A DNA stretch of 45,609 nt, from assembly GCA_040879785.1 (NCBI GenBank), contig JBBDJR010000004.1, positions 80,778-126,386 of the forward strand, given 5' to 3'. The stretch's first letter is position 1; each line of letters opens with the position of its first letter. A program made the position numbers and the translations under genes. This stretch comes from Candidatus Pacearchaeota archaeon (GTDB taxonomy: Archaea > Nanobdellota > Nanobdellia > Pacearchaeales > GW2011-AR1). This document shows positions 3,170 to 45,453 of this stretch, one piece after another. Under the pieces are notes generated by a model. That model had not been told where the DNA came from and did not search any database. It was given only the letters and a program-made list of their open reading frames with translations.

Positions 3170-3211
3170 AAAGAAACAAAGAAAAAGACGTTTTTATATT
3201 TTTCACACAAT

Positions 3212-10614: not shown

Positions 10615-10775
10615 TTTAAATTAATTTCCCTACTTTACCAAAAGAAGCCTCTCCGAAAACTTTATAAAATAAGATTCTATTTAGTTTTTATAGGGTTGAT
10701 TCTAGGAAATACGCCGAAGCGTATCTCATTAGACAAATTATGTGAGGTTCTATAATTTAAGATATAAAAACAAAA

Positions 10776-13408: not shown

Positions 13409-13570
13409 AGGAATTTTTGTGGACACTAAAACTTAAAAACTATTCTCACATATAAAATTATGAGGTTTTTATTAATGATACTGGAGAATTTCAGATTGAT
13501 ATCTGATTTTGTAAAGAGTCATTTAAACTTCTAATTTAAAAGAGGTCTGACGAATAACCAAAGAGATTAA

Positions 13571-28179: not shown

Positions 28180-28180
28180 T

Positions 28181-28657: not shown

Positions 28658-28744
28658 ATGAAATTAAATAAGAAGAGATTTATAATACTTTTGTAGACTC
28701 TTTATATGAAACTAAAATATAACCAGAAAACCTAATTTTATAAT

Positions 28745-28870
28745 TTACTTCTTACTCTTCCGACTCCCGTGCTCTTTCTTCTTCCCAGTTTTCTTCATAT
28801 TCAAAATCATATACACTGCTACAATCAGAATTGCTAAGATAAAGATATATGCATTGAAGAAAGGAGAGAT
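28745..28870 (-). pseudogene. Orphan 3' end (PFF + TM + basic tail) of gene 29890..31344
   Basis: Translates to ISPFFNAYIFILAILIVAVYMILNMKKTGKKKEHGSRKSKK*, versus IALPFFNVYSFLIAILLIVAVYMILNMKKTGKKKEHGSRKKGKK* in the intact gene; an in-frame stop lies just upstream and no start codon precedes the PFF motif. Confidence 0.85.
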
Positions 28871-28937
28871 TCTAGGATAGTCTTAGTTAACCCTACAAAA
28901 GAGAAAGATTTATATATATGTAGGGATAACTAATAAA

Positions 28938-29876
28938 ATGCATTTCAAAACAAAATCAATAAAGGGAAGGAAATATAAGTATGCTGCAAAATCAATAAGG
29001 CTTCCAAATAAAAAAATTCTTTCTATTGAAAAGATATACAAAGATGAGAGTAAAGAGGAATTGGAAGGATATTTTGATAAAAAAGAAAAAGATGAATACC
29101 TAAAATATATGTTAAAGAATTTCAAAACTGACCACATATTTGACGAAATTCAGATGAAAAAAATAGAGGAAATTAGGGTGAATTACAAGAAAATTCTAAA
29201 AAAACTAAGTAGGGCTTCATTAAAGGATTTATTGGACAGATTTACTGCTAATTTTACTTATGAGAATAATGCTCTTGAAGGAAACTCTCTCACTCTAAAA
29301 GATGTAGCGATTGTAATGTTTGAAAACGCTTCAATAAAAGGGAAGGATTTAAGAGAAATTTATGAAACAAGGAATTCAAGAGAAGTTGTTGAAATGATAA
29401 TTAAGAATAAGTTTAGTATATCTCAAGAGGACATAATTAAAATACACAAGATTTTAATGAAAGATATGGATGTTGATACAGGATATAAAAAATTTCCAAA
29501 CCAGATAGTTGGAAAAAAAGTGAAAACAACTCCTCCCGAGAAAGTTCAGGAAGAAATGGAGAAATTAGTTAATTGGTATAATTCAAATAAAAATAGAATC
29601 CATCCTTTAAGAATCGTCGCCATTTTCCATGGGAAATTCGAGAAAATCCACCCTTTTGAGGATGGTAACGGAAGAGTCGGAAGATTTTTGATTAATGTGA
29701 TCCTGATAGAAAACAAATATCTTCCAATGATTATAAGAAAATCACAAAGATTGGCATATTTGACTACCCTGGAAAAATTTGATGATGATCACGAAGATAA
29801 TTTAATAAGATTTGTTTTGGAGAAATTTAAAGAGACGTATAGAAAATTTTTTGAAGTTTATGTTAATTATTTATGA
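28938..29876 (+). CDS. Fic family protein
   Basis: Canonical HPFEDGNGRVGR motif and NNALEGNSL inhibitory-type motif. Confidence 0.93.
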   Translation: MHFKTKSIKGRKYKYAAKSIRLPNKKILSIEKIYKDESKEELEGYFDKKEKDEYLKYMLKNFKTDHIFDEIQMKKIEEIRVNYKKILKKLSRASLKDLLDRFTANFTYENNALEGNSLTLKDVAIVMFENASIKGKDLREIYETRNSREVVEMIIKNKFSISQEDIIKIHKILMKDMDVDTGYKKFPNQIVGKKVKTTPPEKVQEEMEKLVNWYNSNKNRIHPLRIVAIFHGKFEKIHPFEDGNGRVGRFLINVILIENKYLPMIIRKSQRLAYLTTLEKFDDDHEDNLIRFVLEKFKETYRKFFEVYVNYL

Positions 29877-29889
29877 TAATTTATTTTCC

Positions 29890-31344
29890 CTACTTCTTAC
29901 CCTTCTTCCGACTCCCGTGCTCTTTCTTCTTCCCCGTTTTCTTCATATTCAAAATCATGTAAACTGCTACAATCAGAAGTATGGCTATTAAGAAGCTGTA
30001 AACATTAAAGAACGGCAGAGCTATTTGCGCAGGGCATAGTGCAACCCTCGAGTCGCTTTGACATGTTTCCATCTGTTTTTCTGAATCAAGATAGCACAAT
30101 CCGTCATCAAGAACATAATTATCAAGACAACCATCTTCGCCTGGTTCCTCACCAATATTCCCGTCATGCCATTCCCATTCGGCCGTCCAGTTGAAAGTTA
30201 TAAATTCGTCGGTTTCACAGCTTCCGGTTACATCTTCACGTGTATATGTACATGTTCCACCGTCAGTTCCGTCTCCGTCAGTGTTCCACTTTGCATCACA
30301 CTCATTCTCTCCTGAATCCCAATAACACTCACAGTTTCTTTCCTCGTCGCAAAATCCATCCCCCATGTTATATCCTTCCCCCGATTCAACAGTGTGTTTT
30401 GCTGTAATACATAGGTCTGCTTCACATCTGTCTTTATTATAATCCCAGCATAAGTTAATTTCTTCCGCCTCACACCATTCCGGCTTACCCTCAGTCACAA
30501 GAAGCGAGTTGCTGCTATCTTCAAACTCGTTATCATTCCCCACGACCGTCGCAGTAAAAGTATACTTGTCATCGTGGACCGGCTCCGCCGTCCAGGTTCC
30601 TGTCGCGTTTCCGCTATCGTCAAAATTCACATTCTCCGGGTTTGTACATCCGTCAATATCAGAACATGAAGTTCCGCCCCGGAAGACTTCGATTGAGATT
30701 TGTGCTCCCCCAGGAGCATCACTGCAAGCAGGGGTTCCTTCAACAATAAACCCCGCATTACTCCCTTCAGAGGCCGAAATGCCATCCCAACTTGCAGAAG
30801 TTAGGTCGCAATCTGCAGGATCAAAAACAGGAGTAGCACAAATCTTTGATTCATAATTATCTTCTTCTGGTTTTTCGGAGTGCGCATTCGAAAAACTCTT
30901 ATCTTCGTTTGTAGACAAGTAAATAATCTCAATTTTTGGAATATCTTCTTCCTCTGTAGAATTACCACATTCTTTTGTTGCATCAATTGATTCTACTTCT
31001 TTAAAACCACTATAACAGGCATCAGCATCATAATATGAGGAAAGTAAGTCAGGCACTTCGGCATGAGCATTAGTTGATGATGAAATTCCTAAGAACTTTT
31101 CATTTCCATCACACGATGTACTTCCACCCCCAAAATCACAGCATAAAACTTTCTTACCTGGAAAATCAGGCTGGTTTGCCAAGGCAACATGCGCGTTCGT
31201 AAATTCTGAGAGTCTGAGAACAATATTATTATCTCCATCACAGTTGTTTGAATTTACATATGTACAAGTCTGCGCAGAAACGCTCCCAACACTTACGACT
31301 AATAGAAACAGCCCAAGCAAAAATAGTATTCCTTTCAACCTCAT
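29890..31344 (-). CDS. Cys-rich acidic surface protein with C-terminal LPFF-TM-basic anchor
   Basis: Signal peptide, three NAH-containing repeats, Ig-like middle region, Cys-rich stalk, sorting-signal-like C-terminus. Confidence 0.85.
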   Translation of the reverse strand: MRLKGILFLLGLFLLVVSVGSVSAQTCTYVNSNNCDGDNNIVLRLSEFTNAHVALANQPDFPGKKVLCCDFGGGSTSCDGNEKFLGISSSTNAHAEVPDLLSSYYDADACYSGFKEVESIDATKECGNSTEEEDIPKIEIIYLSTNEDKSFSNAHSEKPEEDNYESKICATPVFDPADCDLTSASWDGISASEGSNAGFIVEGTPACSDAPGGAQISIEVFRGGTSCSDIDGCTNPENVNFDDSGNATGTWTAEPVHDDKYTFTATVVGNDNEFEDSSNSLLVTEGKPEWCEAEEINLCWDYNKDRCEADLCITAKHTVESGEGYNMGDGFCDEERNCECYWDSGENECDAKWNTDGDGTDGGTCTYTREDVTGSCETDEFITFNWTAEWEWHDGNIGEEPGEDGCLDNYVLDDGLCYLDSEKQMETCQSDSRVALCPAQIALPFFNVYSFLIAILLIVAVYMILNMKKTGKKKEHGSRKKGKK

Positions 31345-31480: not shown

Positions 31481-31630
31481 ATGGAAACCCTTGAGACAAC
31501 TTTAGAGAAAGTTGAGTTAAAGACTGAAGAAGAAAAAACCTTACCTATGGAAAGGTCTCTTTACGAAGGACTTCAAAAAATATCGGATGAAGTCTATAGT
31601 GGACCAACGAGTATTAAATATTGGATGTAA
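31481..31630 (+). CDS. Putative RiPP precursor peptide (49 aa)
   Basis: Not in the ORF track. METLETTLEKVELKTEEEKTLPMERSLYEGLQKISDEVYSGPTSIKYWM*; a TTTAAATA box lies about 25 bp upstream and it is the first gene before the ChaN-like and ThiF genes. Confidence 0.7.
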   Translation: METLETTLEKVELKTEEEKTLPMERSLYEGLQKISDEVYSGPTSIKYWM

Positions 31631-31649: not shown

Positions 31650-32228
31650 ATGGATATATCTTTTATTTTTATAGGTAGTACTCATTCTTTTTTAGATGAT
31701 TTCTCAAAACAAAAAGAAATAATAGAGTCAGTAAAACCCAAATTTCTATTAAGTGAAGAATTAGAAAATTTAAAATTAGATAAGGAAGATAGGTTTAAAG
31801 AAATTCTGGAGAAAAAATTTATTTCAGATATGACTTCTTTTGGTGAAGTTGAAAAACTGGTAAAATTGTGTTTTGAAAAAAAGATTAAACTAATTGGAAT
31901 TGACTTTCATAACTTTGGATTTGACGAAAATCTACAAAGAAAAATAAAGAATCAAAAAGAACTTACAAATGAAGAGGAAGAAATTTTAGAAGAGCTAACA
32001 AAAAAAAGAGAAAAACACCATCTTTCAAAGATTTTGGAATATAAATCAAAAACAAAACTTCCAATAGTTATTATTCTTGGTTGTTGGCATTTAAGAAAAG
32101 ATTCTTTATTAAGAAAAAGATTAGAAAACTATAAAATTATCGCTCCGTTGGATGAAACTGGAGAGGTCTTGTTTGAACCAAGCAATAAAGAAATTAAATA
32201 TGGAGAGATAATTTCAAATGGACAATAA
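31650..32228 (+). CDS. ChaN/EreA/TIKI superfamily-like hydrolase
   Basis: FIGSTH, LLSEE, LIGID, KRE and ILGCWHL pattern of the EreA/ChaN/TIKI fold. Confidence 0.65.
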   Translation: MDISFIFIGSTHSFLDDFSKQKEIIESVKPKFLLSEELENLKLDKEDRFKEILEKKFISDMTSFGEVEKLVKLCFEKKIKLIGIDFHNFGFDENLQRKIKNQKELTNEEEEILEELTKKREKHHLSKILEYKSKTKLPIVIILGCWHLRKDSLLRKRLENYKIIAPLDETGEVLFEPSNKEIKYGEIISNGQ

Positions 32229-33228
32229 GCTAAAACTCAAGGATTCGTTGTATATCTTAAGAGATACTGAAGATAATTATGTTTTTATTTCAACTGCAAC
32301 ACGAAGAATAAAAAAATTTCAAGTAGACTCTTTAGTTAAGGATGTGATTGCTTCCCTTGATTCCGAGCAAACAGAACAAGATTTAAATAAAAGGTTATCT
32401 TCTAAATATGGTTCTCAAGATATAAATTCTTGTTTAAATGCTTTAGAAAAAGAAGGGATTGTTAGAAAATATGAATCTGATTTAGAAAAAGGAAGGCATT
32501 ACAAGCAATTATTATTTTTGGATGAACTTACAGATTCAAGGGAAGAAACTTTAGAATTACAAAAAAGAATAGAAAATTCTAAAGTTGCAGTTTTTGGGGT
32601 GGGCGGAATTGGAACTTGGATTGTAAATGGATTGTATCAAATTGGTGTAGGAGAAATAAGAATCACTGACCCTGATGTTGTAGAGGAAAGTAATTTTAAC
32701 AGGCAGTTATTTTTTGATTCAGGAGATGTTGGTGAGTATAAGGTTAATGTTGTAAAAGAAAAATTAGGGGAGGCAAATATAATACCCTTCAAGAAAAGAG
32801 TTGAACCAAATCAGGATTTGGAGAATATTGTTTTTGGTTGTAATTTTTTAGTAAATTGTGCAGATTCTCCATCGGTTGCAGAAACAACAAGAATTATTGA
32901 TAGTTATGCTAATCAGCACGAAATTGCTTATTGTGTTGCGGGAGGATATAACCTACATTTGGGAATGGTTGGTCCAGTCATTATTCCAGGAGTTACTAAA
33001 ACTTTTGACGATTTTATAGGATATCAGAAAGTAATGGATCCATTAAGAGATTTGGAAAAGATAAGGGACATCAAACAAACAGGAAACCTTGGGCCAATTG
33101 CCGGAGCAGTGGCAAATATTCAAACAATGGAAATTTTTAAGTATCTTACAGGAAAGGGAAGAATAAATCTGAATAGATTCGCAGAAATAGACTTTATGGA
33201 TTTTGGGATTGAATGGAGAGAGTTTTAA
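32218..33228 (+). CDS. ThiF/E1-like adenylyltransferase with N-terminal RRE-like winged-helix domain (MccB/PaaA-like)
   Basis: VFGVGGIG, DPDVVEESNFNRQ, YKV and CADSP motifs; about 85-aa N-terminal extension of three strands then helices; no CxxC zinc motifs. Confidence 0.88.
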   Translation: MDNKLKLKDSLYILRDTEDNYVFISTATRRIKKFQVDSLVKDVIASLDSEQTEQDLNKRLSSKYGSQDINSCLNALEKEGIVRKYESDLEKGRHYKQLLFLDELTDSREETLELQKRIENSKVAVFGVGGIGTWIVNGLYQIGVGEIRITDPDVVEESNFNRQLFFDSGDVGEYKVNVVKEKLGEANIIPFKKRVEPNQDLENIVFGCNFLVNCADSPSVAETTRIIDSYANQHEIAYCVAGGYNLHLGMVGPVIIPGVTKTFDDFIGYQKVMDPLRDLEKIRDIKQTGNLGPIAGAVANIQTMEIFKYLTGKGRINLNRFAEIDFMDFGIEWREF

Positions 33229-33274: not shown

Positions 33275-35254
33275 TCAATCACTTGAATTTGTATGCCAGT
33301 AAAAACCTCCCTTGCGTGCGTACTTGTTCTCAGGTCCGAAATCAGAACCTATAATATTGTCGTTTGTAAAGAAATCCCATTGAGGGAATCCTTCATCATC
33401 CCAAATAAATGTTGAATACTTTTTATCTTCGCTTCCAAGTTCATGATATAAAATATCTCCTGCTTTTTCATCCCATACTCCTGCTTCTGGCTCACCCGAT
33501 GGAGAAGAGCCGATTGTTTTTCCATAAGGGTCATCAGGATGACTTCCAGACTTCACAAACATATGCCAAAATTCGTGTGTTGTTGTTCCGCTTCCTGCCC
33601 TAGGAACCAAGTAAATTGTTCCACGTGAAACAAAACCTCCTGTAGTGTAGGGTTTTGCCTGCCCTGCTCTGCCTCCAACATCAAAAACTTTTCTCGGAGA
33701 AACAATAATTGTTCCTTGAGAAGGTCTTATATTATCAACCTTGTCGGTTGTGCCACAATCAACAATATAAGAATTTCCTTCATCGTTTCCAAATACAATT
33801 TGATTTTCGTTTATTTGATAGTTCCCTGTGAATCTGCTAACGTGGTCTGGACTCATGATTACATCTCTGATGTTTTCGTATCTTTCATCGTTGAAGGTTG
33901 CATCTTCGTCACAAGGATCACTTTCCAAGACCCTTATTCTTTCCAATCCCTCAAAATCTCCATAGTCGTCATTTATGTTTTTAAGATATCTTCCGTCAAA
34001 ATCAAACTTGGTTGGCGCTCCTATGAATTGAAGAAACTCTTTAAATTCCTCTTTATGCTCATCACGCGAAACCCCCATAATCGTAATGTCCGAATTGTAT
34101 CTTTCGTCCTCAGGATTTGTTATGTAAGAGGGAATCGTCTCAGTTCTTACATAGCCGGTGGTATCGTTGGGAGTTCCATGAAATGCCTGAACGACCAGCA
34201 TTTCTTCAAGCTCCGAGGCTTTTTTCTTTAACTTAAATTCAAAGTTTCCATCGGCGTCTGTGATGTAATTTCCTTCAGCGTCAGCTTTTTCTGTCTCAAG
34301 ATGATTCCAGGTTTCATCCTCGTCTGTTTTATGAATTTCATAAACTCTCATCGCTGATTTTTCTCCTCCAAGCGTCTCAACGTTTTTTACGGTTCCCGAA
34401 ATAACGGGAAATGATTTTATTTCTGCAGGCAAATCATAGGAAGAATTTTCTACGGTGAATGTAGTGTCCCACGGCTCGTGATAATCTGCTCCAATAGATA
34501 TATTTATATTGTTTTCTTCTGAAGTTAAGAAATTACCTTTCTGTAAATTCTGCGACCGTCCCGATTGTTTATTCTTAAACCGAGAGTCTGAAAAAGCTCC
34601 CGAGCCGGCAGAATGGCTTATGCTGACATTATTATGATTTCCTCCTCCGACACTGGTCATTTTTTCCGTGGAGCTGTTTTCTCCGTCGTCATCGGTTATT
34701 CTAAACAAATAAGTCCCGGGAGTATTTATTCCGCTTATGTTGAACACATGGTCTCCTCGAGATAAATCCACAGTTTTTCCTGAAAGTCTTTGTCCTAAAA
34801 TGTTGTATACCTCTACATCATGCGCTCCCCCTGTGGGTGTTGTATAAACTACGTTCGTACTTGGATTAAACGGGTTCGGATAGTTGCTACTTAAATTATA
34901 TCCTGTTGGAATTTCTTCAGACCCGTCATCTTCTGCGCTTACTACTGTCTTAAACGATAGAGGACCCCATCTTCCATCACTTCTCGTAGTGAGTGTCGTG
35001 TCCTTCATAGACTCTCCGTTTTCGTATCTTATGTTAACCTCCGCACCGCTAACATCTTCTCCAAGATTATTTGTCACGTAACCACTTAAACTAACCCCCT
35101 CTTCCTGACTTACCCTATATTCATTTTGTTGTTTGTTGTTATACGCTTCCACATTTTGAAACGAAGGAATTGACGTAGCGAGAACTAATGAGCCTAAGGC
35201 AGCTAGGCCGAATGTTTTTGCCCGGTAGACTAGGTTTTCAAGAGTTTTACCCAT
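33275..35254 (-). CDS. Secreted acidic protein with internal T9SS-CTD-like Ig domain and HExxH motif (paralog 1)
   Basis: Signal peptide; YNLSSNYPNPFNPST...VYNILGQ...GTYLFRI; THEFWH. Confidence 0.85.
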   Translation of the reverse strand: MGKTLENLVYRAKTFGLAALGSLVLATSIPSFQNVEAYNNKQQNEYRVSQEEGVSLSGYVTNNLGEDVSGAEVNIRYENGESMKDTTLTTRSDGRWGPLSFKTVVSAEDDGSEEIPTGYNLSSNYPNPFNPSTNVVYTTPTGGAHDVEVYNILGQRLSGKTVDLSRGDHVFNISGINTPGTYLFRITDDDGENSSTEKMTSVGGGNHNNVSISHSAGSGAFSDSRFKNKQSGRSQNLQKGNFLTSEENNINISIGADYHEPWDTTFTVENSSYDLPAEIKSFPVISGTVKNVETLGGEKSAMRVYEIHKTDEDETWNHLETEKADAEGNYITDADGNFEFKLKKKASELEEMLVVQAFHGTPNDTTGYVRTETIPSYITNPEDERYNSDITIMGVSRDEHKEEFKEFLQFIGAPTKFDFDGRYLKNINDDYGDFEGLERIRVLESDPCDEDATFNDERYENIRDVIMSPDHVSRFTGNYQINENQIVFGNDEGNSYIVDCGTTDKVDNIRPSQGTIIVSPRKVFDVGGRAGQAKPYTTGGFVSRGTIYLVPRAGSGTTTHEFWHMFVKSGSHPDDPYGKTIGSSPSGEPEAGVWDEKAGDILYHELGSEDKKYSTFIWDDEGFPQWDFFTNDNIIGSDFGPENKYARKGGFYWHTNSSD

Positions 35255-35279
35255 TTTAGGTTAAATCCTGTATCATTCC

Positions 35280-35334
35280 AATACACAGAAATATAATAAA
35301 CTTACTATTTAAATCTTTAGATTGTTGTCACTTA
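35280..35334. repeat. Junction repeat R2, copy 1 (55 bp, upstream of T9SS-like paralog 1)
   Basis: 54/55 identical to 41168-41222. Confidence 0.9.
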
Positions 35335-35358
35335 AAAGGGAGTAACATGTAACAAGGC

Positions 35359-35922
35359 CTAATCATAATAGAAACAACATACCTGTCCTTCTGTTGGCGG
35401 CTCGTCTGAGCGCTCGTCTTCTCTGTTAATTACAAACTCGCCTTCTCTGTCTGGACATTCTCCTTCAGAAGTTGCATCTACCCACTCGCTGTTTAAACCG
35501 CCCTCACATGTGTTGTCTGTTTCTTCCTCTTCTTCACAATCAATCGCAGGGCAGGGCTGTACTCCGTATCGTGCATAATCAGGATTTGTTGCAAGCTCGT
35601 TACATGTAGCTATTAAGTTTTCATCTGCTCTCCTTTCAACATCACAAAAAGCAGTGATGCTATTTGAATCACAGTGATTTTGACATTGAACATTTGTTGG
35701 GTTCGGCTGCTCCTCCCTATCAGAAACCAGAATATAAACAACCGAAGCTGCTATGAGAATAAAAATAATCGTTATTGCTATTGCAAGTGTTTTTGTATTC
35801 ATTTTGTTTCCCGTATGTCCGTGACGAGCGCCGTGTCTTCCGCGATGGACCGTATTGTTTTTAGAATGATTCGCGCGCCCGTGATTTGATTTATGTCCGC
35901 CATGTTTCTTAGGATATTTCAT
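35359..35922 (-). CDS. Membrane protein with His/basic N-terminal tail and Cys-rich ectodomain (paralog 1)
   Basis: MKYPKKHGGH..., one TM helix, Cys-rich domain ending in CC. Confidence 0.85.
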   Translation of the reverse strand: MKYPKKHGGHKSNHGRANHSKNNTVHRGRHGARHGHTGNKMNTKTLAIAITIIFILIAASVVYILVSDREEQPNPTNVQCQNHCDSNSITAFCDVERRADENLIATCNELATNPDYARYGVQPCPAIDCEEEEETDNTCEGGLNSEWVDATSEGECPDREGEFVINREDERSDEPPTEGQVCCFYYD

Positions 35923-35977
35923 TTGTTTAACTTAGCCCTCTTTTACACACCTTCTATAACAAAACTGCTTTTATAAA
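35715..35977. repeat. Repeat R3, copy 1 (263 bp: promoter plus 5' coding part)
   Basis: No differences seen by eye versus 42394-42656. Confidence 0.92.
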
Positions 35978-36018
35978 TATTGCTCTAATGTAGTTGTGTT
36001 GTTTTTTGATTGTTAGAG
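35969..36018. repeat. Junction repeat R1, copy 2
   Basis: 49/50 identical to 31370-31419. Confidence 0.9.
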
Positions 36019-36093: not shown

Positions 36094-36939
36094 TTAGATA
36101 AAAAAGGGGCTCTGCCTGAATTCTTCAGATTTCTTCTTTAATAACTGTTTCCATGAGATATTTTTATTCTTCTCTAAATAATCTTCAATTAAGTAATATC
36201 CTATTGTATAACCTGTACCTGAAACATATTTCCCTCCTCCAAAAAACAAATCAGAATGAATACCTGGATTATCATTCATTGTTTTATCTAAAAATGACTT
36301 TAGTTCTTTTAATATTTTCTTGGCTTCATTCCTTGAAACAACCTTTGTGAAAGAATTTCTATTGTCGTCAAGAAATCCTTTTTGAAAATGTTCTGCCAAC
36401 CCATCTGCAACTAAATGTTCAAAGAGAGTCATATCATAAGAATAATAGTCTTGTAAACAATGAGCCAATTCATGTAAAATAGTGCTTTTTAAATTTAGTT
36501 CCCAATTTTGAACAGGATTTATGAATATATGTAAAATATCATCCCAAGCAAGCAGACCCCAAACACCGCCGAGACTCTCAACTACAAACCTGGATTTCGT
36601 CGGGAAGATATAAATTAAAATTTCCCTTCTACCTAATAAGTCTTTTATTTTTTCGAAGATTCCCTCTATTACATTCGTCATTTCTGATAAATTTATTTTT
36701 CCGCTAAAAAGTTCTACTTGCTCATCCTTGAATAAAGAATCTGTTAAATTATGCCTAAAATCTTCTTTATCCATGCATCCTCCAAAATGATCTTTTTCCT
36801 TAAGGGTTTCTATATCCTCACATATCTGATCTAAAAAAAGATCCTTGTCCCTCATAATGCTTATTCTATCTAGAAAAGAAAAAGTTTTCACATCTAAATT
36901 TCCATCTTTTAATCTAATTTTCACATTCTTACGTTCCAT
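36094..36939 (-). CDS. DUF2268-type putative Zn-dependent protease
   Basis: ILHELAH, ADGLAEHF, LFFGG and GYTIGYYLI motifs. Confidence 0.85.
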   Translation of the reverse strand: MERKNVKIRLKDGNLDVKTFSFLDRISIMRDKDLFLDQICEDIETLKEKDHFGGCMDKEDFRHNLTDSLFKDEQVELFSGKINLSEMTNVIEGIFEKIKDLLGRREILIYIFPTKSRFVVESLGGVWGLLAWDDILHIFINPVQNWELNLKSTILHELAHCLQDYYSYDMTLFEHLVADGLAEHFQKGFLDDNRNSFTKVVSRNEAKKILKELKSFLDKTMNDNPGIHSDLFFGGGKYVSGTGYTIGYYLIEDYLEKNKNISWKQLLKKKSEEFRQSPFFI

Positions 36940-36963
36940 AATTTTGGAAGAATAAACAGGCTT

Positions 36964-37677
36964 TTATTCTTTTCTCTTTCCTACATTTATTGTATAAACA
37001 GGTATTTCACCTTCAGTGAGATCCAATATTTGAATTAATGCATCATCTACAAATCCGCTAACAGGACAAGCCCCAATTCCATTTTCTGCAGCTGATAAGA
37101 CAATATTTTGCCCCATGTGCCCTGCTTCAAGGTATGAGAAAGGAAGGGCCTTATGTCTATATTTAACTTCTGAGCGAGAGATAACTGATGTTAATGCAAG
37201 GGTTGCCGCAGGATTAATGATGTTTGTTCCCATTATCTCTCCTTGCCTATTCTCCAAGTCTTTCTCCAACAATGTTTCGAGCGAACAATTATCTACATTA
37301 AAATGATATGCTCCTTTGTTTAGCCCCTCTATATTATATCCAATCATGTAGATCTCAATAGGAAATCGTGCACCTGCAGAAGGGTAAGTTCTTCTTTCAG
37401 GATCTCGTGAATAATCTAATATGCTACAAGAATTTAGTAGTCTAGATATTTCTTCTAAACTCATAGGTTGATCTGAAAACTCTCGAATAGACTCTCTTGA
37501 TTGTAGAATTTTCTGAAGATAACCATCTCCTACTTTTGGAAGAGGATTTTGAGAAAGTCTAGGATACGATTTTTTGAAAATATGGACAAACTCTACAGGC
37601 ATCTCGCTATCACCAATATTCCACTCTATATCTTCTAATTTTAATTTCTCATAAAAATTTCTTGTTTCTTCTAACAT
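36964..37677 (-). CDS. SagB/McbC-type FMN-dependent azoline dehydrogenase
   Basis: RESIREF, RTYPSAGARFPIEIY, catalytic KY (SEVKY), LEAGHMGQN, GFVDD. Confidence 0.92.
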   Translation of the reverse strand: MLEETRNFYEKLKLEDIEWNIGDSEMPVEFVHIFKKSYPRLSQNPLPKVGDGYLQKILQSRESIREFSDQPMSLEEISRLLNSCSILDYSRDPERRTYPSAGARFPIEIYMIGYNIEGLNKGAYHFNVDNCSLETLLEKDLENRQGEIMGTNIINPAATLALTSVISRSEVKYRHKALPFSYLEAGHMGQNIVLSAAENGIGACPVSGFVDDALIQILDLTEGEIPVYTINVGKRKE

Positions 37678-37678
37678 T

Positions 37679-38911
37679 TTAAGTTAAGGGATGTGGTTTA
37701 AGTGATTTATCTTCTTTTACTTCACCATAATGTATGCTATATAATGCTTTTGCCCTTTCATCCAAATATAAAGGATGTAATTCAGGGATTATTATCTTTT
37801 TAGTTTCAAACCCTTCCTTTTTTAATTCGGGAAGAGTAATATCTACTTCAAAAATGTTAAATTTTCTTTCTCCTAACTTTGATAAAATTTCCTGTGGATT
37901 GTTCACCCTAGATTTAAGAGAAGAATAAGAAATCTCTTTCTCTGATTCTAACCAGAAACTCAAATCGTTTATTCTTTCAAGTGGCTGCCAATATACAAAT
38001 CTGTCTTCTAGTGAGAAAATTTCATCTTCGTTCGGAGCTCCTTCAGAAAAACTACCCTCCTTGAATAAGCGAGCATGTCTTCTGCATTGTATTGCCTCTA
38101 AAATGGATTTATAGGCGGAATCTTCATAAGTAAAATCTGAAGCAGAACCGACATCTACTGCAGGACCAAATCCAGTTTTATCAATAACAGCACTTATTAC
38201 TGTGGGAACATCTAAATCAGAAGTTGCATCAAAAGCAAACACCTCTAGATTATATCTTTTTAGATATTCTTCTAATTGTCCAATTTTTCCATTGAAATCG
38301 ATGATTCTTGGCAATTCCGTTCTTGAAATATAAGGATAGATACAAGAGTCTCTCTCAATAACCTCCAGCAAACCAGAATTAAGTGCTCTATCTGTTCCTT
38401 CCTTTCCAAACGCAGTTCCTGTACTTATACTTTCTTTCCTAATTCCAAATTCCCCTTTAAAGAGATTAGATAAATAAACAAGCTGGGCAGGGATAAACTT
38501 AACCCCTCCATTGATTAGATCTCTAGATTGAACCCATAAATAATCGGATTCTCTTGCATCCTTTTTAAATTTTTCTCTATCTCCTATTTGTTCATTGGAA
38601 TAACAACAAAATATCCCCGGATCAACCATTTCCTCCTTATCATCAAATTTTTGGACAAATAATCTATCTTTACGAGGGTTATCTATACATAACCTTTCTA
38701 GGTATTCTGCTACGGATTTTACTCTTGATAATGTTTCATGGGGATGATATCCCTGCCCATGGTCTCCATCGGTTGAATATCTCTCTTGTGCAGTTTCATT
38801 AGGTAAAGTTAAGAAATTTGGTATTTTTGGTTCATCTGTTATATATGGTACACTCTCTTCTGGAGAAGACAGCCCTATATTTCTAATCCTTGTTAATATT
38901 TCTTCTAGCAT
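37679..38911 (-). CDS. YcaO cyclodehydratase
   Basis: AEYLER, IPAQLVY, STGTA and GLLEVIERD ATP-binding motifs; Pro-rich C-terminus PELHPL...KPHPLT. Confidence 0.93.
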   Translation of the reverse strand: MLEEILTRIRNIGLSSPEESVPYITDEPKIPNFLTLPNETAQERYSTDGDHGQGYHPHETLSRVKSVAEYLERLCIDNPRKDRLFVQKFDDKEEMVDPGIFCCYSNEQIGDREKFKKDARESDYLWVQSRDLINGGVKFIPAQLVYLSNLFKGEFGIRKESISTGTAFGKEGTDRALNSGLLEVIERDSCIYPYISRTELPRIIDFNGKIGQLEEYLKRYNLEVFAFDATSDLDVPTVISAVIDKTGFGPAVDVGSASDFTYEDSAYKSILEAIQCRRHARLFKEGSFSEGAPNEDEIFSLEDRFVYWQPLERINDLSFWLESEKEISYSSLKSRVNNPQEILSKLGERKFNIFEVDITLPELKKEGFETKKIIIPELHPLYLDERAKALYSIHYGEVKEDKSLKPHPLT

Positions 38912-38943
38912 ATTGAGTTTCCTATCACCCCAATATTGTATAA

Positions 38944-39156
38944 TTATCTCTCTAAGGTTTTCTCTACTTTTTCTACAAGGCTATTCCCTCTAGCCATACT
39001 TGCTGAGGACCTACTTGAACATTTAGAGCCACACTTAGAGTTTCCTACAGCATAGGCAGTATTCTCATTTGGGGAATATCCCATCTGATATGCAGCATCC
39101 TCTATAATTGGGCTCCTTTCAAGCAATTCTTTCCTATTTTGGTATTTGTTTTCCAT
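38944..39156 (-). CDS. Putative azole-RiPP precursor peptide (70 aa)
   Basis: Directly upstream of YcaO; central NSKCGSKCSSRSSAS Cys/Ser-rich segment between charged flanks. Confidence 0.78.
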   Translation of the reverse strand: MENKYQNRKELLERSPIIEDAAYQMGYSPNENTAYAVGNSKCGSKCSSRSSASMARGNSLVEKVEKTLER

Positions 39157-39221
39157 ATAATCTCTTATGATTTAAGCTTTATAAGAATTTCTATACTTTA
39201 TTTTACGACTAAAAATGACCC

Positions 39222-41141
39222 CTAAAAATCGCTCTGCCAATAAAATCCGTTTTGATGTGATTCTTTCCCATCAGGACCGAATTCAAGTCCGAGGATATTG
39301 TCTACTTCATCGAAACGAGGATATCTCAATCCATCAAATCTTATAAACTGAGACCATCTTCCGTCATCATATCCGAGTTCGTAATATAACATTTTTCCCG
39401 ATTTTTCGTCCGCGGGACCTGCTGTTGATCTGTTTCCTTTAGTAGACCCAATTGTCTCGTCCGCTAGGTTCTCAGGGTGTGGACTCCCTACAAACATATG
39501 CCAGAATTCGTGCGTTGTCGTCCAATCTCCCGTGTTTGGAGATAGATAAATCACTCCGCCCCTGACAAGGGTTCCAGATTTACTCTGTACTGCTAGTCCT
39601 GCCCTGCCCCCCACACCAAAATCAGACCTAGGAGAAACAACATACACTCCGGGATTTGGAGAGATATTATACTCTGGCTCAAATGAACTACAATTAACGG
39701 TATAATGTTCGTCCTCGGCATCTCCAATTAATATCTGATTTTCTTCTATAGGGGAAGGAGTTCTAAGTTTGTTAACGTGCTCTGGACTAAGGATAATCTC
39801 CTCAATGTTTTCCTGCTTTTCTCTGTCAATTGTTGCACTATCATCACAAGGGTCTTTATCAAGAATCACAAATTTTTCATCTCCGCTAAGCTCTGGTTTT
39901 AATTTATTGAAATATCTATTATCGATATCTGCTTTATTTGGATTAAGCCCCTCCCATTCTTTTACATGTGCATTATATTCTTCAGGATTATCTCCGTATG
40001 GCTTAAACGGCACACTAACAAATTCAAATTCAGGATTATACTCTGGACTTTCAGGACTGACTAATTTTGAAGGAATCGTCTCGGTTCTTACATAGCCAGT
40101 TCTGTTGTCTGGAGTTCCGTGAGCAGCCTGGACAATAATCATCTCAAGGTCAGATAAATCTTCTTTTTCAATTATCTTTATTTTAAATTCACCATTATCA
40201 TTAGTGATATAGTTTTCCTCTGAATCAGCATCCTTTATTTTTAGCTGATTCCATTCAGGATCGTAAATCCTCATAGTTGATTTTTCTCCTTCGAGAGTTT
40301 CATTACTTATTACAGCCCCTTCAAGATATCCATATACCTTCTTCTCAAGAACAGTATTTATTTGGTCTGGTGAAGATTCAAAAGTGAATGTGGTGGTCCA
40401 GGGTGTATAATGCTCTGCCGTTATTGAAACATACACTTCATCTTCCGAGTTTGTTGTTCCCACCTGCCTTTTATCAATCCTATTATTGTTTACAAAGTTT
40501 GCCGAACTTCCTGTGGAATGGCTCACGCTAATATTATTTTCTCTCCCACCTCCAATACTAGTCATTTTCTCAGTAAGCCTACTTTTAGGATCTGAAGTAT
40601 TATGCCCACTAAAGAAATAAACTCCAGGAACAGTCACACCTCCAATAGAGAAACTATTATCTCCTTGATTCAAATCTTTTGTTTCTTTATACAATTCCTG
40701 TCCTAGGATATTGTGTATTGTTATTATGTGAGGACCTCTTTCCGGAGTGGTATAAACTACATTTGTCCTAGGATTAAATGGATTTGGATAGTTACTACTT
40801 AAAGAATATCTGTTAGGAACCTCTCCAGGATTTTCTGCACTCGTAACTGTTTTTTTTAAATCCCATTCTCCTGCATAATTTGTGGTTAGAGTTGTATCTA
40901 AATCAGCATAACGCACATTTACATTAGCCCCTTCAATTCCATCCTCGGAGCCGTTTGTTACATATCCTCTTAAATCAATTTCTCTATCTTCCTGAGTCAC
41001 ATATTCTTGAGTTCCCTGAGCTTTTGAAGAGTATGCTGTTCCCTGAATCTGTGGAGATGACATATTAAAGACTAATCCAAGAGTAGCAGCCGTCCCAAAA
41101 ACTTTGGTCTTATGTAGTAGACTTTCAAGCGTTTTATTCAT
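39222..41141 (-). CDS. Secreted acidic protein with internal T9SS-CTD-like Ig domain and HExxH motif (paralog 2)
   Basis: YSLSSNYPNPFNPRT...HNILGQ...GVYFF; GYVRTETIPS and THEFWHMFV are shared with paralog 1. Confidence 0.85.
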   Translation of the reverse strand: MNKTLESLLHKTKVFGTAATLGLVFNMSSPQIQGTAYSSKAQGTQEYVTQEDREIDLRGYVTNGSEDGIEGANVNVRYADLDTTLTTNYAGEWDLKKTVTSAENPGEVPNRYSLSSNYPNPFNPRTNVVYTTPERGPHIITIHNILGQELYKETKDLNQGDNSFSIGGVTVPGVYFFSGHNTSDPKSRLTEKMTSIGGGRENNISVSHSTGSSANFVNNNRIDKRQVGTTNSEDEVYVSITAEHYTPWTTTFTFESSPDQINTVLEKKVYGYLEGAVISNETLEGEKSTMRIYDPEWNQLKIKDADSEENYITNDNGEFKIKIIEKEDLSDLEMIIVQAAHGTPDNRTGYVRTETIPSKLVSPESPEYNPEFEFVSVPFKPYGDNPEEYNAHVKEWEGLNPNKADIDNRYFNKLKPELSGDEKFVILDKDPCDDSATIDREKQENIEEIILSPEHVNKLRTPSPIEENQILIGDAEDEHYTVNCSSFEPEYNISPNPGVYVVSPRSDFGVGGRAGLAVQSKSGTLVRGGVIYLSPNTGDWTTTHEFWHMFVGSPHPENLADETIGSTKGNRSTAGPADEKSGKMLYYELGYDDGRWSQFIRFDGLRYPRFDEVDNILGLEFGPDGKESHQNGFYWQSDF

Positions 41142-41167
41142 TTTATAGCCTATTAGACATTATTTTT

Positions 41168-41222
41168 AATACACAGAAATATAATAAGCTTACTATTTAA
41201 ATCTTTAGATTGTTGTCACTTA
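41168..41222. repeat. Junction repeat R2, copy 2
   Basis: 54/55 identical to 35280-35334. Confidence 0.9.
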
Positions 41223-41296
41223 GAAGTGAGTTAGAATGAGACTACCTCAATTAGGCTTTAGTTATTTTTATAAATAAGAAAGCTATATATTTTTTA

Positions 41297-41977
41297 ATGT
41301 TTAAAAGACCTAAAAGAAGAATGCCCAAATTTGGCGGAAATTTTTCCCCTGAGAAGCGTCCAACAAACATGCCCTTCATAATTCTTGGAGGGACTTTTGC
41401 TGTTGCATTGATTGGTATTGTTTTGTTATTCTTTGTCTCTGAGTGGGATTTTTCTGGAAGCGAATCTAATGAGGAGGTTCCTTCTGAAACGAGAGAATCC
41501 GCAGAATTAGCGGTTTCATGCAATGACTGGGATTGTTTAATAGAGAACTCCAAAAACTGCAATCTTGCAAAAGCGACCTTAAACTCAACAATTAATTTTT
41601 TTGGGGCAATAATAACCACTACTTCTTCTTATGAGATAAAAGAGTCGGAAATAGGGGTGTGTGAACTTTATACAATAAATAAGTACCAAACTATAGGTTA
41701 TGATGAAGAGATAGTTGAGCAAAAGTTGGAAGAAGGAATGACAGATGAAGAAATTGAACAAGAAATAAAGGACGTAAATGAAGAAGTATCTGAATTTGAG
41801 AAGACGGGTTCTGTATGCAGGTTTGAGCCGACTTCGGATTTAACTGAATATCTGACATTATTAGATGAAGGAGTTTTCGATTTTAGTATATCAGGAGGAC
41901 TAACGCCCGAAGGGTTTGAAGGAGAAACAACTGCCGGAGGCATTACATTAGATTGTGATACTCTAACTCTAGATTAG
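41297..41977 (+). CDS. Membrane-anchored acidic extracellular protein
   Basis: Basic N-terminus, TM helix, CNDWDCLIENSKNC motif; a TTTATAAA box lies upstream. Confidence 0.8.
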   Translation: MFKRPKRRMPKFGGNFSPEKRPTNMPFIILGGTFAVALIGIVLLFFVSEWDFSGSESNEEVPSETRESAELAVSCNDWDCLIENSKNCNLAKATLNSTINFFGAIITTTSSYEIKESEIGVCELYTINKYQTIGYDEEIVEQKLEEGMTDEEIEQEIKDVNEEVSEFEKTGSVCRFEPTSDLTEYLTLLDEGVFDFSISGGLTPEGFEGETTAGGITLDCDTLTLD

Positions 41978-42049
41978 AAAGAAGGATTTGCATTTTGTGA
42001 TTAATTCCAACAACAAGGTTAAGAGAAATAGAAACAATTAATATTTAGT

Positions 42050-42601
42050 CTACCTACAGCAAACCATGCCTTCTTCCGGAGGATTATCTGAAGCAGGTAT
42101 TTCTTTCCTTGCTTTTAGTCCAAACTGCTCACAGGTTCCGTCTGCCTGAGGTTCTTCCCATATTCCGCCCAAACCTTCTACACAGGTCTGATCTACTTCC
42201 TCCTCTTCTTCACAATCAATCGCAGGGCAGGTTTCTACACCATATTGTGCATAATCAGGATTTGTCGCAAGCTCGTTGCATGTTGTTCTTAACTCCTCAT
42301 CAGCATTTACCCTAAAATCACAAAATCCTGTTTTTTGCTCACTCTCACAGAGGAATGCACACTGTTCCGAAATCGGATCCGGCTGCTCCTCTCCCCTATC
42401 AGAAACCAGAATATAAACAACCGAAGCTGCTATGAGAATAAAAATAATCGTTATTGCTATTGCAAGTGTTTTTGTATTCATTTTGTTTCCCGTATGTCCG
42501 TGACGAGCGCCGTGTCTTCCGCGATGGACCGTATTGTTTTTAGAATGATTCGCGCGCCCGTGATTTGATTTATGTCCGCCATGTTTCTTAGGATATTTCA
42601 T
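42050..42601 (-). CDS. Membrane protein with His/basic N-terminal tail and Cys-rich ectodomain (paralog 2)
   Basis: First 69 aa identical to 35359..35922; ectodomain diverged with conserved Cys spacing. Confidence 0.85.
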   Translation of the reverse strand: MKYPKKHGGHKSNHGRANHSKNNTVHRGRHGARHGHTGNKMNTKTLAIAITIIFILIAASVVYILVSDRGEEQPDPISEQCAFLCESEQKTGFCDFRVNADEELRTTCNELATNPDYAQYGVETCPAIDCEEEEEVDQTCVEGLGGIWEEPQADGTCEQFGLKARKEIPASDNPPEEGMVCCR

Positions 42602-42656
42602 TTGTTTAACTTAGCCCTCTTTTACACACCTTCTATAACAAAACTGCTTTTATAAA
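42394..42656. repeat. Repeat R3, copy 2
   Basis: Matches 35715-35977 at an offset of 6679 bp. Confidence 0.92.
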
Positions 42657-42694
42657 CATTTTTATGTCCGAATCTATTATAGGTTAGATGAGAT

Positions 42695-42870: not shown

Positions 42871-43371
42871 ATGAAAGATAAGGTAAATTGGCAAGGGAAA
42901 ACTTATGAAATGGAATGGTTAGATGAATTTGATGATCTTTTTTTAGATAAATTACAACAGGTTTATGGATTTCTTTTTGATGACAAGGGGAATATCTGTA
43001 TCGTAAGGCCTACTGAAAAAAGAGGATGGAGGCTTCCAGGTGGAGGACCAGAAAAACAAGATAAAGATTGGAGAGAAACAATTATCAGGGAAGCTATTGA
43101 GGAAGCAGACATTGAAATAGAAAAAGATTCTCTAAAAATTGTTGGATTAATTAAAAATACTCCAATTAGTAAAAATTGCGAAAGAGAAGAAGGTTATGCC
43201 TTAAGAGTTGTTGGAAATATAAGTTCAATTAATAGTCAAACAGAAGATATTGCTGAGGGTCTGATTAATGAAAGGAAATTTGTCAAACCAGAAGAATTTT
43301 TGGACTATTGCCAGTGGGGAAAATTCGGAGAATTTCAAATAAAAAAAGCATTGGGGGTTTATAGGAAATGA
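42871..43371 (+). CDS. Nudix hydrolase
   Basis: WRLPGGGPE...RETIIREAIEEAD variant Nudix box. Confidence 0.88.
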   Translation: MKDKVNWQGKTYEMEWLDEFDDLFLDKLQQVYGFLFDDKGNICIVRPTEKRGWRLPGGGPEKQDKDWRETIIREAIEEADIEIEKDSLKIVGLIKNTPISKNCEREEGYALRVVGNISSINSQTEDIAEGLINERKFVKPEEFLDYCQWGKFGEFQIKKALGVYRK

Positions 43372-44105
43372 AAAAACAATTTTATGACTTGTGGAGAAAT
43401 AAATCTGAATTAGAAAATGCAGGAATACAAAATCTAAAACTTTCAAAAAAATTAATTTTAGAAAATATTCCTTCAAATGAAATTGTTTCTATTTATGTTA
43501 AAGGAAGTTTTGTAAGAAGAGAGATGGTATCTAAAAGTGATATTGATATTATAACTGTTTTAAAGACTAAGAAGCATTTTGGAAAGATAAAAAAATTAGA
43601 TAAGTGGGGAGAAAGATCAAACTTAAAACCTTATCCTCAATTTTTAGGTTATTCTTTATGGGAATTAAAAACAGGAAAAAGGATTAAAAATAATATTGGA
43701 GGCGCTTCCCCTTCCAGAATGGTTAAGCACTTAAAGGAATATAAATTAATTTATGGAAGAGATTTAGTAAAAGAAAATCTTTTCACAAGAACCGATGAAG
43801 AAGATTTAGAAAAATTAGCCAATGTCTTTAGAAAAGAATTCATTCCACAATATGAAAGAGGTAATTTTTCTTTCGGAATGTTGATAAAACAAACATTTTG
43901 GTTAATAGAAAATGAACAAAAAGTAAAAGGAAAAAATCCACCTCATCAATGGAAGAAATTAAGGGATTCTATAAAAGATAGAAATCATATAATTTACGAT
44001 GCATGGAGATTAAGGGAAATTCCAAGTAAAGACAAAGCCATAAGAAAAGAGTATGTTAACAAATTAAAAAAATATATTAAAAAAAACCGTAGATTATTAG
44101 AATAA
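43368..44105 (+). CDS. Pol-beta superfamily nucleotidyltransferase
   Basis: IYVKGSFVRREMVSKSDIDI; ATGA overlap with the upstream Nudix gene. Confidence 0.82.
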   Translation: MKKQFYDLWRNKSELENAGIQNLKLSKKLILENIPSNEIVSIYVKGSFVRREMVSKSDIDIITVLKTKKHFGKIKKLDKWGERSNLKPYPQFLGYSLWELKTGKRIKNNIGGASPSRMVKHLKEYKLIYGRDLVKENLFTRTDEEDLEKLANVFRKEFIPQYERGNFSFGMLIKQTFWLIENEQKVKGKNPPHQWKKLRDSIKDRNHIIYDAWRLREIPSKDKAIRKEYVNKLKKYIKKNRRLLE

Positions 44106-44106
44106 T

Positions 44107-44550
44107 ATGAAGAAAAAAATATTAACTTTTGTTGTGAATAGGGGAAAATTCTTAGCTTTGCATAGCGAGCCTCATCCCGACCACGGTAAGGGAGGATGGT
44201 TTGTAGTAACTGGAGGTGTTGAAGAGAATGAAACTCACGAAGAAGCTGTGGCAAGAGAGATATTAGAAGAGACGGGATTGGCTGTAGATGAAATAATTCC
44301 TTTAAACTGGGGTTCAATCTACAACTGGTGGGATGAATTATGTGAAGAATTAAATTTCATCTCATTTGTAAAATCTGGAGAAATGATTCTAAATGAAGAA
44401 CATTCAAAATTTGATTGGCTAGAAATTGATGAATTTATTGAGAGAATTAAATGGGATGATGATAAAGAATTATTAAAAACAATCTTAGAGAAAGCACTTA
44501 ACAAAGAAAAACACTTTCATAAGATGACCGTTAAAGATTATCGGAAATAA
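44107..44550 (+). CDS. Nudix hydrolase
   Basis: VTGGVEENETHEEAVAREILEETGL, LNEEH. Confidence 0.9.
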   Translation: MKKKILTFVVNRGKFLALHSEPHPDHGKGGWFVVTGGVEENETHEEAVAREILEETGLAVDEIIPLNWGSIYNWWDELCEELNFISFVKSGEMILNEEHSKFDWLEIDEFIERIKWDDDKELLKTILEKALNKEKHFHKMTVKDYRK

Positions 44551-44689
44551 AAAATTTCTAAAATTAATTAGAATAATTTAATTTGTGTAGCGTCTTCTTT
44601 TTAGAAAAAAAGAAACAAAAAAGCACGTGTCTCTTTGATACATAGCTCCAAGAGTAGTATCTTCCATCTGTGTAAATAACTCCCATCTT

Positions 44690-44734
44690 CTAAAACCCTC
44701 AATCACTTGAATTTGTTTGCCAATAAAATCCGCC
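44690..44734 (-). pseudogene. Orphan 3' end of a T9SS-like paralog
   Basis: 41/45 identical to 33266-33310; encodes GGFYWQTNSSD* versus GGFYWHTNSSD*. Confidence 0.8.
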
Positions 44735-44779
44735 TATTCATCAAACCATGCATTCCCAAGAACATATTTGAGTCTTAAT

Positions 44780-45453
44780 GTGGAGCGGGAAATCCACATT
44801 CTTTCAAGATGTGGATGAGAGCGATTGATTTTTATTTCTAGGTTGATTTGATTATGAATGGGCTGGTTACTAGCCCATTGAAAGTTCTAACAATAGTCGG
44901 AGCTTTCTAAACTAAATAAATCTTTCGGAGGCAAAATGGAAAAACAAATTTTGATTAGCGAGAGCTACGGAGAAAAGTATGATAAGGGAAATCACAGCGT
45001 GGGTATATCGATGTGGCACTTTGAATGGTGCACAAAATACAGATACAAGATGTTTAGGAAAGAAGAGCAAAGAAATTTGATAACTGCTTGCATAAGACGT
45101 GCAGCGTTGCTACTAAAAACCCCCCTGCGGGTTTTTGATCCTGCGACCATCCTTCTACAAGATTGAGATAATGGAATTAAATGTCCAACCTGAACATGTA
45201 CATTGTGTCGTTGGGATAAAATTGAGCTTTAGTCCAGCTTATGCTCTGCAAATATTAAAAGGAATTTCTGCAAGATTGTTCTTTAAGAATAATCCAAAAG
45301 CAAGGTTAAGATATCCTAAAGGTCATTTGTGGAGTCCTGGAAAGTTTGCGACAAGTCTTGGGTTTATACAGGTTGAACAAGCAAAGAATTATGTACAGAA
45401 TCAAGACATTCACGTATAGAAGCCTTGCCTTTCTAAGGCAAGGAGTGGGTCAC
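44780..45453 (+). mobile_element. IS200/IS605-family element carrying tnpA only
   Basis: Left hairpin atccacat...atgtggat (44792-44816) after TTAAT; right hairpin ccttgcctt-tct-aaggcaagg (45423-45443) followed by ...GGTCAC; HUH transposase between them. The left boundary is approximate. Confidence 0.8.
44936..45419 (+). pseudogene. tnpA: Y1 HUH transposase TnpA split into two frames by a 43-bp insert
   Basis: WHFEWCTKYRY in frame 1; EHVH, LKGISAR, LWSPG and YVQNQ in the +1 frame. Confidence 0.88.

Follow-up and report, generated by a model that had tools for sequence, protein, structure and literature searches.

Relationship to described azole-peptide systems

Azole-peptide synthetases are the textbook case of leader recognition by an E1-like partner protein that bears a RiPP recognition element (RRE; RiPP, a peptide made by ribosomes and modified after translation). 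In the systems for microcin B17 (McbBCD), plantazolicin, klebsazolicin and streptolysin S, a YcaO protein acts with a SagB/McbC-type dehydrogenase dependent on flavin mononucleotide (FMN) and possessing a Lys-Tyr (KY) pair. Both enzymes were also encoded on a 45,609-nt stretch of DNA (the window; positions 80,778 to 126,386 of contig JBBDJR010000004.1, assembly GCA_040879785.1) from Candidatus Pacearchaeota archaeon, in which nt 36094-39156 probably constitute a functional RiPP operon of four genes that yields a linear peptide with azoles, belonging to a YcaO clade that seems to lack a partner.

Besides the enzyme pair, the window shared with the microcin B17-type systems a leader-bearing precursor with a Gly/Ser/Cys-rich core, and McbD and McbC were detectable sequence relatives of its proteins. 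However, among the 22 loci whose YcaO was at least 35% identical to that of the window (close loci), neither the operon nor its surroundings encoded an E1-like RRE partner of the McbB/SagC type; the precursor family fitted no curated model and often had a conserved follower; a DUF2268 protease stood in place of their TldD/E or CaaX-type protease; and genes for export or immunity were missing. The YcaO domains of TruD, LynD and MusD were the nearest relatives of solved structure by sequence, but these proteins are about 780 aa long with fused N-terminal E1-like and RRE domains, whereas the window protein had 410 aa.

The YcaOs of bottromycin use a follower peptide, and a conserved follower was found in about half of the window's precursor family. 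They differ from the window YcaO in belonging to another clade and in having no paired SagB dehydrogenase of this kind, and bottromycin has no N-terminal leader, whereas the leader of the window family was strongly conserved. What the two have in common is the lack of a partner, the bottromycin YcaOs being described as acting without a partner protein in the retrieved sections of PMC8442711. Archaeal YcaO clusters are represented by the haloazolisins, whose precursors have Ser-rich cores, and the thermoacidophisins; in the text available from PMC4603692, the former possess cyclodehydratases of the fused type whose C domain is degenerate and the latter discrete C proteins. The DPANN clade shows neither arrangement. 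That survey of archaeal thiazole/oxazole-modified microcins (Cox et al. 2015, PMC4603692) used 2014 data, and its available sections held no mention of DPANN. In the extracts available from PMC12144867 and PMC12153355, YcaO-type clusters of DPANN archaea and of bacteria of the candidate phyla radiation (CPR) appear as antiSMASH output without analysis. Literature searches for this YcaO clade, its precursor family and DUF2268 in RiPP pathways returned no report, while the supplementary tables of these surveys may list such clusters.

Organization of the operon

The genes and the possible promoter region of the operon were as follows.

nt 38944-39156, minus strand: gene of the precursor peptide, 70 aa (list of open reading frames, ORFs)
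nt 37679-38911, minus strand: gene of the YcaO-domain protein, 410 aa (ORF list and PF02624)
nt 36964-37677, minus strand: gene of the SagB-type FMN dehydrogenase, 237 aa (ORF list and TIGR03605)
nt 36094-36939, minus strand: gene of the DUF2268 (YjaZ-like) zincin, 281 aa (ORF list and PF10026)
nt 39157-39221, minus strand: A/T-rich spacer of 65 nt upstream of the peptide gene, possible promoter region of the operon (by eye)

The first-pass annotation had described four co-oriented, tightly packed genes; all four indeed lay on the minus strand within nt 36094-39156, with intergenic gaps of 32, 1 and 24 nt in the order peptide, YcaO, SagB and DUF2268. Read directly from the sequence, a TATA-like TTATAAAG was located about 20-28 nt ahead of the ATG of the peptide gene, and the spacer containing it is a possible operon promoter. 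That these genes form an operon beyond chance is indicated by the strong family matches of three ORFs, by a small ORF conserved beside YcaO, and by the codon pattern (see below).

The host had been taken for a DPANN-like archaeon, which agreed with the small source genome (552,617 bases, 73% completeness), with the presence in the window of genes for archaeal OapB, OapC and the CCA enzyme, and with the source names of the nearest homologues, namely Woesearchaeota, Pacearchaeota and Nanoarchaeota. The GC content of the operon genes was considered as a sign of recent transfer and rejected, since at 0.305-0.39 it was not distinctive against 0.348 for the whole window.

Conservation of the gene neighborhood

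Thirty-one loci were compared, 24 from GTDB representative genomes, one from a genome of the same genus and six from a phylum-wide search, by tblastn with the window proteins over the first 25 and then over the six more. Of the loci, 22 were close and nine distant, and those close loci that were placed in the tree formed one clade (support 100/100). SagB adjoined YcaO in 30 of the 31 loci, the exception being L027, which ends inside the YcaO gene. DUF2268 adjoined the YcaO-SagB pair in 15 of the 31, each time in the operon and in the same orientation, and all 15 were close loci; it was absent despite sufficient room in four further close loci (L019, L023, L025 and L026), which had housekeeping or mobile genes on both sides, and contig ends prevented its scoring in the other three (L012, L022 and L027). 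The nine distant loci kept SagB, with DUF2268 in none. DUF2268 is thus a frequent but dispensable companion. A precursor-like small ORF was found beside YcaO in 21 of the 22 close loci, the remaining one (L011) being cut upstream by the contig end. The annotation's expectation that a small ORF and DUF2268 would be conserved next to homologous YcaO genes was accordingly borne out for the ORF and only in part for DUF2268.

When all ORFs of 70 aa or more from the 25 loci and the window surroundings were clustered against each other, no gene other than YcaO, SagB and DUF2268 proved common to more than five loci. No E1-like/RRE partner, exporter or immunity gene was conserved near the operon in the 22 close loci or in this clustering of 25 loci, which likewise showed no conserved TfuA or sulfur-donor gene nearby. 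The obligatory set of the clade is precursor, YcaO and SagB.

Two genes were split into two ORFs each, DUF2268 of L013 (nt 8929-9703 of that locus) and YcaO of L028 (nt 1333-2495), and may be frameshifts or decaying copies. In L023, one of the loci without DUF2268, a radical SAM gene (nt 8962-10887 of the locus, minus strand) was convergent to SagB and the precursor core was unusually Cys-dense; this locus may represent a hybrid pathway.

The precursor peptide family

The 70-aa window peptide contained, as previously pointed out, a central segment, NSKCGSKCSSRSSAS, at residues 39-53. Alignment of the family gave a common layout consisting of a variable N-terminus, a leader motif, a linker, a Ser/Gly/Cys-rich core (residues ~38-53 in the window peptide) and a C-terminal follower. 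The leader motif was IEDAAY in the window peptide and IENAPY in most relatives, with LLE-x-S before it; the short linker ended in a small residue plus Gly; and the follower was LVEKV in the window peptide and LEEKV-like in relatives, being found in 11 of 22 precursors. The proposal that the core is flanked by both a leader and a follower was upheld, conservation of the two in the alignment indicating that they are real features. Core length was very variable, and several cores had no Cys at all (for example L012 and L017). The gene lay directly upstream of YcaO in nearly all close loci, and downstream of DUF2268 in L016 and L020.

When six-frame translations of the 25 loci were searched with a regular expression for IENAPY and variants such as IEDAAY, exactly one match per locus, at the cluster-side ORF, was obtained in 16 of the 25, with none elsewhere; variant motifs were recognized by eye in L012, L026, L027, L049 and L050. 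Compared with its closest relative (L010), the window peptide gene had 20 synonymous and 18 non-synonymous differences over 64 codons, and in the core the split was 11 synonymous versus 4 non-synonymous, which indicates that the precursor reading frame is under purifying selection. The window peptide matched no family in Pfam or NCBIfam, and NCBIfam searches with 18 precursors gave only faint low-complexity matches, among them two of the 18 that hit a model of thiopeptide precursors, with E 0.0089 at best.

YcaO and SagB proteins

The YcaO protein matched PF02624 in Pfam over model positions 2-325 of 325 (E 1.8e-36). Its top NCBIfam model was TIGR03604 (SagD family), with a score of 156.8 bits against a cut-off of 219.25, followed by TIGR03266 with 58.3 bits. 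Residues E69, E72 and R73 as well as E183, E186, R187 and D188, in which we see the pair of acidic ATP/Mg motifs known from YcaO enzymes, were invariant in 19 of 19 aligned relatives. The motifs were thus intact as first annotated. The Pro-rich tail also described there was not of the PxPxP type; the C-terminus read KPHPLT, with P406, H407 and P408 invariant in the 19 relatives, so that the tail is PxP and the third Pro occurred in only 1 of the 19. According to the available sections of PMC8442711, a Pro-rich C-terminus is characteristic of azoline-forming YcaOs. Ahead of the YcaO domain, about 30 clade-specific residues contained an invariant DEPK, and no E1-like or RRE domain was fused to the protein. 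A co-variation of this DEPK segment with the leader motif was considered and rejected, DEPK or DEPQ being kept in distant-clade members whose peptides lack the motif. By sequence profile, the closest solved structures were MusD (8.9e-17), TruD (1.3e-13), MJ1094 (5.5e-12), LynD (3e-11) and McbD (2e-5), of which MusD, TruD and LynD are azoline-forming and fused to E1/RRE domains and MJ1094 is thioamidating. The window YcaO is presumed from these relationships to be an ATP-dependent cyclodehydratase.

The SagB protein scored 92.5 bits with TIGR03605 in NCBIfam, over the cut-off of 78.4. Retention of the KY pair held throughout the alignment, K172-Y173 being invariant, together with R168, in all 23 sequences; in McbC, KY is catalytic according to the portion of PMC8442711 at hand. 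A conserved N-terminal extension carried the residues K36, Y38 and R40, invariant in the same alignment. PDB relatives of SagB included McbC and the cyanobactin oxidases as well as further proteins with the nitroreductase fold, and SagB is presumed to be an azoline-to-azole oxidase.

A different product is conceivable, namely that the YcaO forms a thioamide or amidine, with the SagB-like protein serving some other redox function, in which case no azole peptide would be made. YcaOs are known to form thioamides and amidines (PMC8442711, retrieved sections), the thioamidating MJ1094 was the third-best solved relative, the SagD-family cut-off was not reached, and several cores were without Cys. 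However, the top NCBIfam and PDB relatives were cyclodehydratases, the cores abounded in Ser, Cys and Thr, from which azolines form, and the strict pairing with a KY-retaining SagB fits azoline oxidation, while no TfuA or sulfur-donor gene was conserved nearby. A product other than an azole peptide is thus improbable, and conventional azole formation is the chemistry preferred here.

The DUF2268 protein

The fourth protein matched PF10026 in Pfam over residues 89-274 (E 7.8e-23, 81.4 bits versus a cut-off of 23.6). The HExxH signature that the first-pass annotation had recorded was confirmed, H156, E157, H160 and a downstream Glu, E183, being invariant in 36 of 36 sequences, and the motif plus Glu is, as judged from this conservation, a zincin site. 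Neither a signal peptide nor a membrane segment was evident in the protein, and sequence searches gave no solved relative (best E 0.23). Literature searches on the names DUF2268 and YjaZ surfaced no relevant report of function, the matches being unrelated by title. The protein is regarded as a candidate peptidase for the leader and/or the follower.

RiPP clusters commonly include a protease of their own, and since this one has no signal peptide it would meet the precursor in the cytoplasm. Together with the invariant zincin site and the same-orientation operon position in 15 of the 22 close loci, these points argue for a peptidase role and against the alternative that DUF2268 serves in self-protection or degradation, or is an unrelated accessory enzyme, with the leader being removed by a housekeeping protease, as by TldD/E for microcin B17. 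The alternative gains from the four loci that had room for DUF2268 and lacked it (L019, L023, L025 and L026) yet kept the leader, from its absence in all nine distant loci, and from the lack of any described function for a DUF2268 member in the literature found. It is considered unlikely, though to be taken seriously, and the role of leader peptidase is retained below.

The nearby ThiF cassette and the partner question

Another set of genes, encoded on the opposite strand to the operon, bears on whether the YcaO has a partner.

nt 31481-31630, plus strand: cassette peptide, 49 aa, with a C-terminus ending in KYWM
nt 31650-32228, plus strand: ORF of 192 aa, faintly TraB/Tiki/ChaN-like
nt 32218-33228, plus strand: ThiF-family protein with an RRE-like N-domain (PF00899)

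The annotation had stated that no E1-like/RRE partner or transporter is encoded in the operon. This was correct for the operon itself, and to it must be added the gene of the ThiF, an E1-superfamily protein, 2.9 kb away, which belongs to a separate cassette. The ThiF protein kept a canonical ThiF domain (PF00899, E 2.4e-38), preceded by an N-terminal extension of 110 residues in which a strand-strand-strand-helix-helix-helix order was read by eye. This extension had only faint winged-helix matches in Pfam and is termed RRE-like by its pattern only. The closest PDB relatives were the peptide-modifying ThiF enzymes PaaA and MccB, with alignments extending into the N-domain. The 192-aa protein matched PF01963 with E 0.1, and a homologue did so with E 0.0011.

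This ThiF was weighed as an E1-like docking partner that acts in trans and presents the leader, like the C or F proteins of known azole synthetases. It was the single ThiF-family gene found in the window genome and lies close to the operon; of the seven cluster-bearing genomes checked, three had full-length homologues (G000, G006 and G061) and four had none, compared with 3 of 42 genomes in the genus overall; and ThiF proteins beside YcaOs serve as docking domains, as stated in the available part of PMC12150305. However, the ThiF gene was always part of a cassette of its own, being preceded in 4 of 4 genomes by a protein of 189-192 aa and a peptide of 49-52 aa with a fixed C-terminus (KYWM or similar), and this arrangement recurred in 27 of 36 metagenome loci, seven of the other nine being cut short. 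In none of these 36 loci was YcaO, SagB or DUF2268 present within 2.5 kb, and conversely only 1 of the 25 YcaO loci had a ThiF match within 7 kb, a weak one (41% over 71 residues). Cassette and YcaO cluster were on separate contigs in G006 and G061; G015 (83% complete) had the cassette with no YcaO found; and the cluster-bearing G058 and G059 had no ThiF-family match above the cut-off. In addition, PaaA and MccB are catalytically active, and the canonical ThiF domain was kept. A docking role in trans for this protein is improbable.

The ThiF family comprised at least 120 protein clusters with 61-91% identity. The evidence says that the cassette would be a second, independent RiPP-like cassette and not the source of the YcaO's partner; by analogy with IndF and GrcB, as presented in the available part of PMC12150305, a testable guess is that C-terminal adenylation is followed by macrocyclization of its peptide. 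Searches of the window genome (73% complete) gave no match to TIGR03603 or PqqD, and that with TIGR03693 carries no weight as its control matched nothing.

Divergent from the cassette, a gene for a large protein rich in Cys and anchored in the membrane at its C-terminus was located at nt 29890-31344 (minus strand), as was likewise the case in G015, and a similar Cys-rich protein was encoded nearby in G006; the likeness was judged by eye at the C-termini (L009, nt 2752-4533; L008, nt 12214-13884).

Distribution and transfer

The YcaO had numerous relatives, proteins of similar length forming 208 clusters at E<=1e-10, and the best 120 of the 208 were all 274-473 aa long, most of them about 403-423 aa. 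The annotation had read the operon as a minimal azole-RiPP pathway of a reduced-genome archaeon; the gene set itself held, SagB and the precursor travelling with YcaO, whereas uniqueness or a special minimality did not, given these 208 clusters. The cluster was found in 1 of 24 other genomes of the genus (G006, with the same four genes in a different neighborhood) and, in the phylum, in 9 of 400 genomes that were at least 90% complete, representing 9 of 280 genera, a count that includes distant-clade matches. Such a rare and patchy spread is typical of mobile accessory modules.

Two copies were bacterial, L019 and L025, originating from a Saccharibacteria genome and a Bryobacterales genome, and an integrase gene lay beside the Bryobacterales copy. 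Both nested among the 16 archaeal rows of the close clade, the inner branches of which were unresolved in the tree, and their position inside an archaeal clade suggests transfer between domains. Apparently through gene transfer, the YcaO clade has become dispersed over DPANN archaea and a small number of bacteria.

Proposed pathway

Gene content, motifs, co-conservation and distribution are observed; the chemistry, the independence from a partner, the cleavage site, the export and the target of the product are inferred, as follows. The 70-aa precursor would be made first. By homology with McbBCD-type systems, the YcaO would then phosphorylate backbone amides in an ATP-driven reaction and cyclodehydrate Cys and Ser of the core to thiazolines and oxazolines, which the SagB flavoenzyme would oxidize to thiazoles and oxazoles. 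The cytoplasmic DUF2268 zincin would remove the leader, probably after the small residue-Gly before the core, and perhaps the follower too, and the product would be exported through something encoded elsewhere.

As no E1-like/RRE partner is encoded, the conserved leader must be read by the YcaO, the SagB or, where present, the N-terminus of DUF2268. Possible readers are the YcaO, its DEPK segment included, the N-terminal extension of SagB, and the N-terminal 88 residues of DUF2268, the last of these being ruled out as a general leader reader by the four loci that lack the protein. We tentatively propose, at somewhat less than even chances, a partner-independent azole synthetase in which the 410-aa YcaO, alone or with SagB, reads a two-part signal, composed of the conserved N-terminal leader and the conserved C-terminal follower, without an RRE, the three-gene module moving between ultra-small episymbionts (DPANN archaea and Saccharibacteria) and its product acting on hosts or competitors.

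Several points weigh against a working partner-less azole operon. To our knowledge, a partner of the E1-like or Ocin-ThiF kind is required by all the well-studied synthetases of linear azole peptides, so that a synthetase without one is an extrapolation. The available sections of PMC4603692 and PMC8442711 are consistent with such a need, and PMC8442711, in the same sections, describes a partner, AmiB, that was missed by ordinary sequence analysis. A cryptic partner or RRE, for example in the DUF2268 N-domain, is possible. That no partner is encoded elsewhere is a weak statement for a window genome that is 73% complete and for locus-derived genomes of unstated completeness, and an RRE-ThiF cassette is carried somewhere in the three of seven cluster-bearing genomes noted above. 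The YcaO itself is under the NCBIfam SagD-family cut-off (156.8 versus 219.25 bits), and its tail is PxP, not the canonical PxPxP. No exporter or immunity gene is conserved, and the stretch was found in the DNA runs of one sediment study only, with no RNA run listed.

Genes surrounding the operon

The operon was flanked on both sides by copies of a duplicated gene pair (nt 33275-35981 and 39222-42660 of the window). The large members (659 and 639 aa) were secreted-looking and 43% identical, each with an HEFWH motif and a Por_Secre_tail-like domain; the small members (187 and 183 aa) were His-rich membrane proteins with 71% identity, the first 276 nt of their genes being 99% identical. These paralogues were considered as components of the system and rejected, as around other YcaO loci they were not conserved. 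Direct repeats of 58-64 nt with 93-95% identity (nt 35280-35343/41168-41231 and 31370-31427/35969-36026) were situated upstream of several secreted-protein genes and may be shared promoter or 5′ elements.

A low-GC stretch (0.29-0.31) at nt 24436-29876 contained nucleotidyltransferase, kinase-like, NUDIX, sulfotransferase, phosphoribosyltransferase, SLOG and Fic genes, and the end of the window (nt 42871-45419) carried a further NUDIX/nucleotidyltransferase set together with a fragment of an IS200-like transposase. The gene content of these two parts points to an accessory region.

Significance

The azole chemistry of this system is conventional and its cluster type is detectable by standard tools; what is new here is an azole-peptide pathway without the canonical partner, together with its precursor family and its candidate protease. 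If the pathway is indeed partner-less, a large clade with a conserved leader would represent a second means by which leader binding is linked with YcaO chemistry and would provide a very compact three-gene toolkit for peptide engineering. DUF2268/YjaZ, a family without known function, would gain a testable substrate. For DPANN archaea and CPR bacteria alike, a life on other cells is assumed and biosynthetic genes are few, and we know of no natural product characterized from either. If true, this would be the first leader-dependent, RRE-free polyazole-peptide route and the first natural-product pathway characterized from DPANN archaea. A peptide pathway that is conserved and horizontally spread offers a concrete handle on the dealings of DPANN archaea and CPR bacteria with their hosts or rivals.

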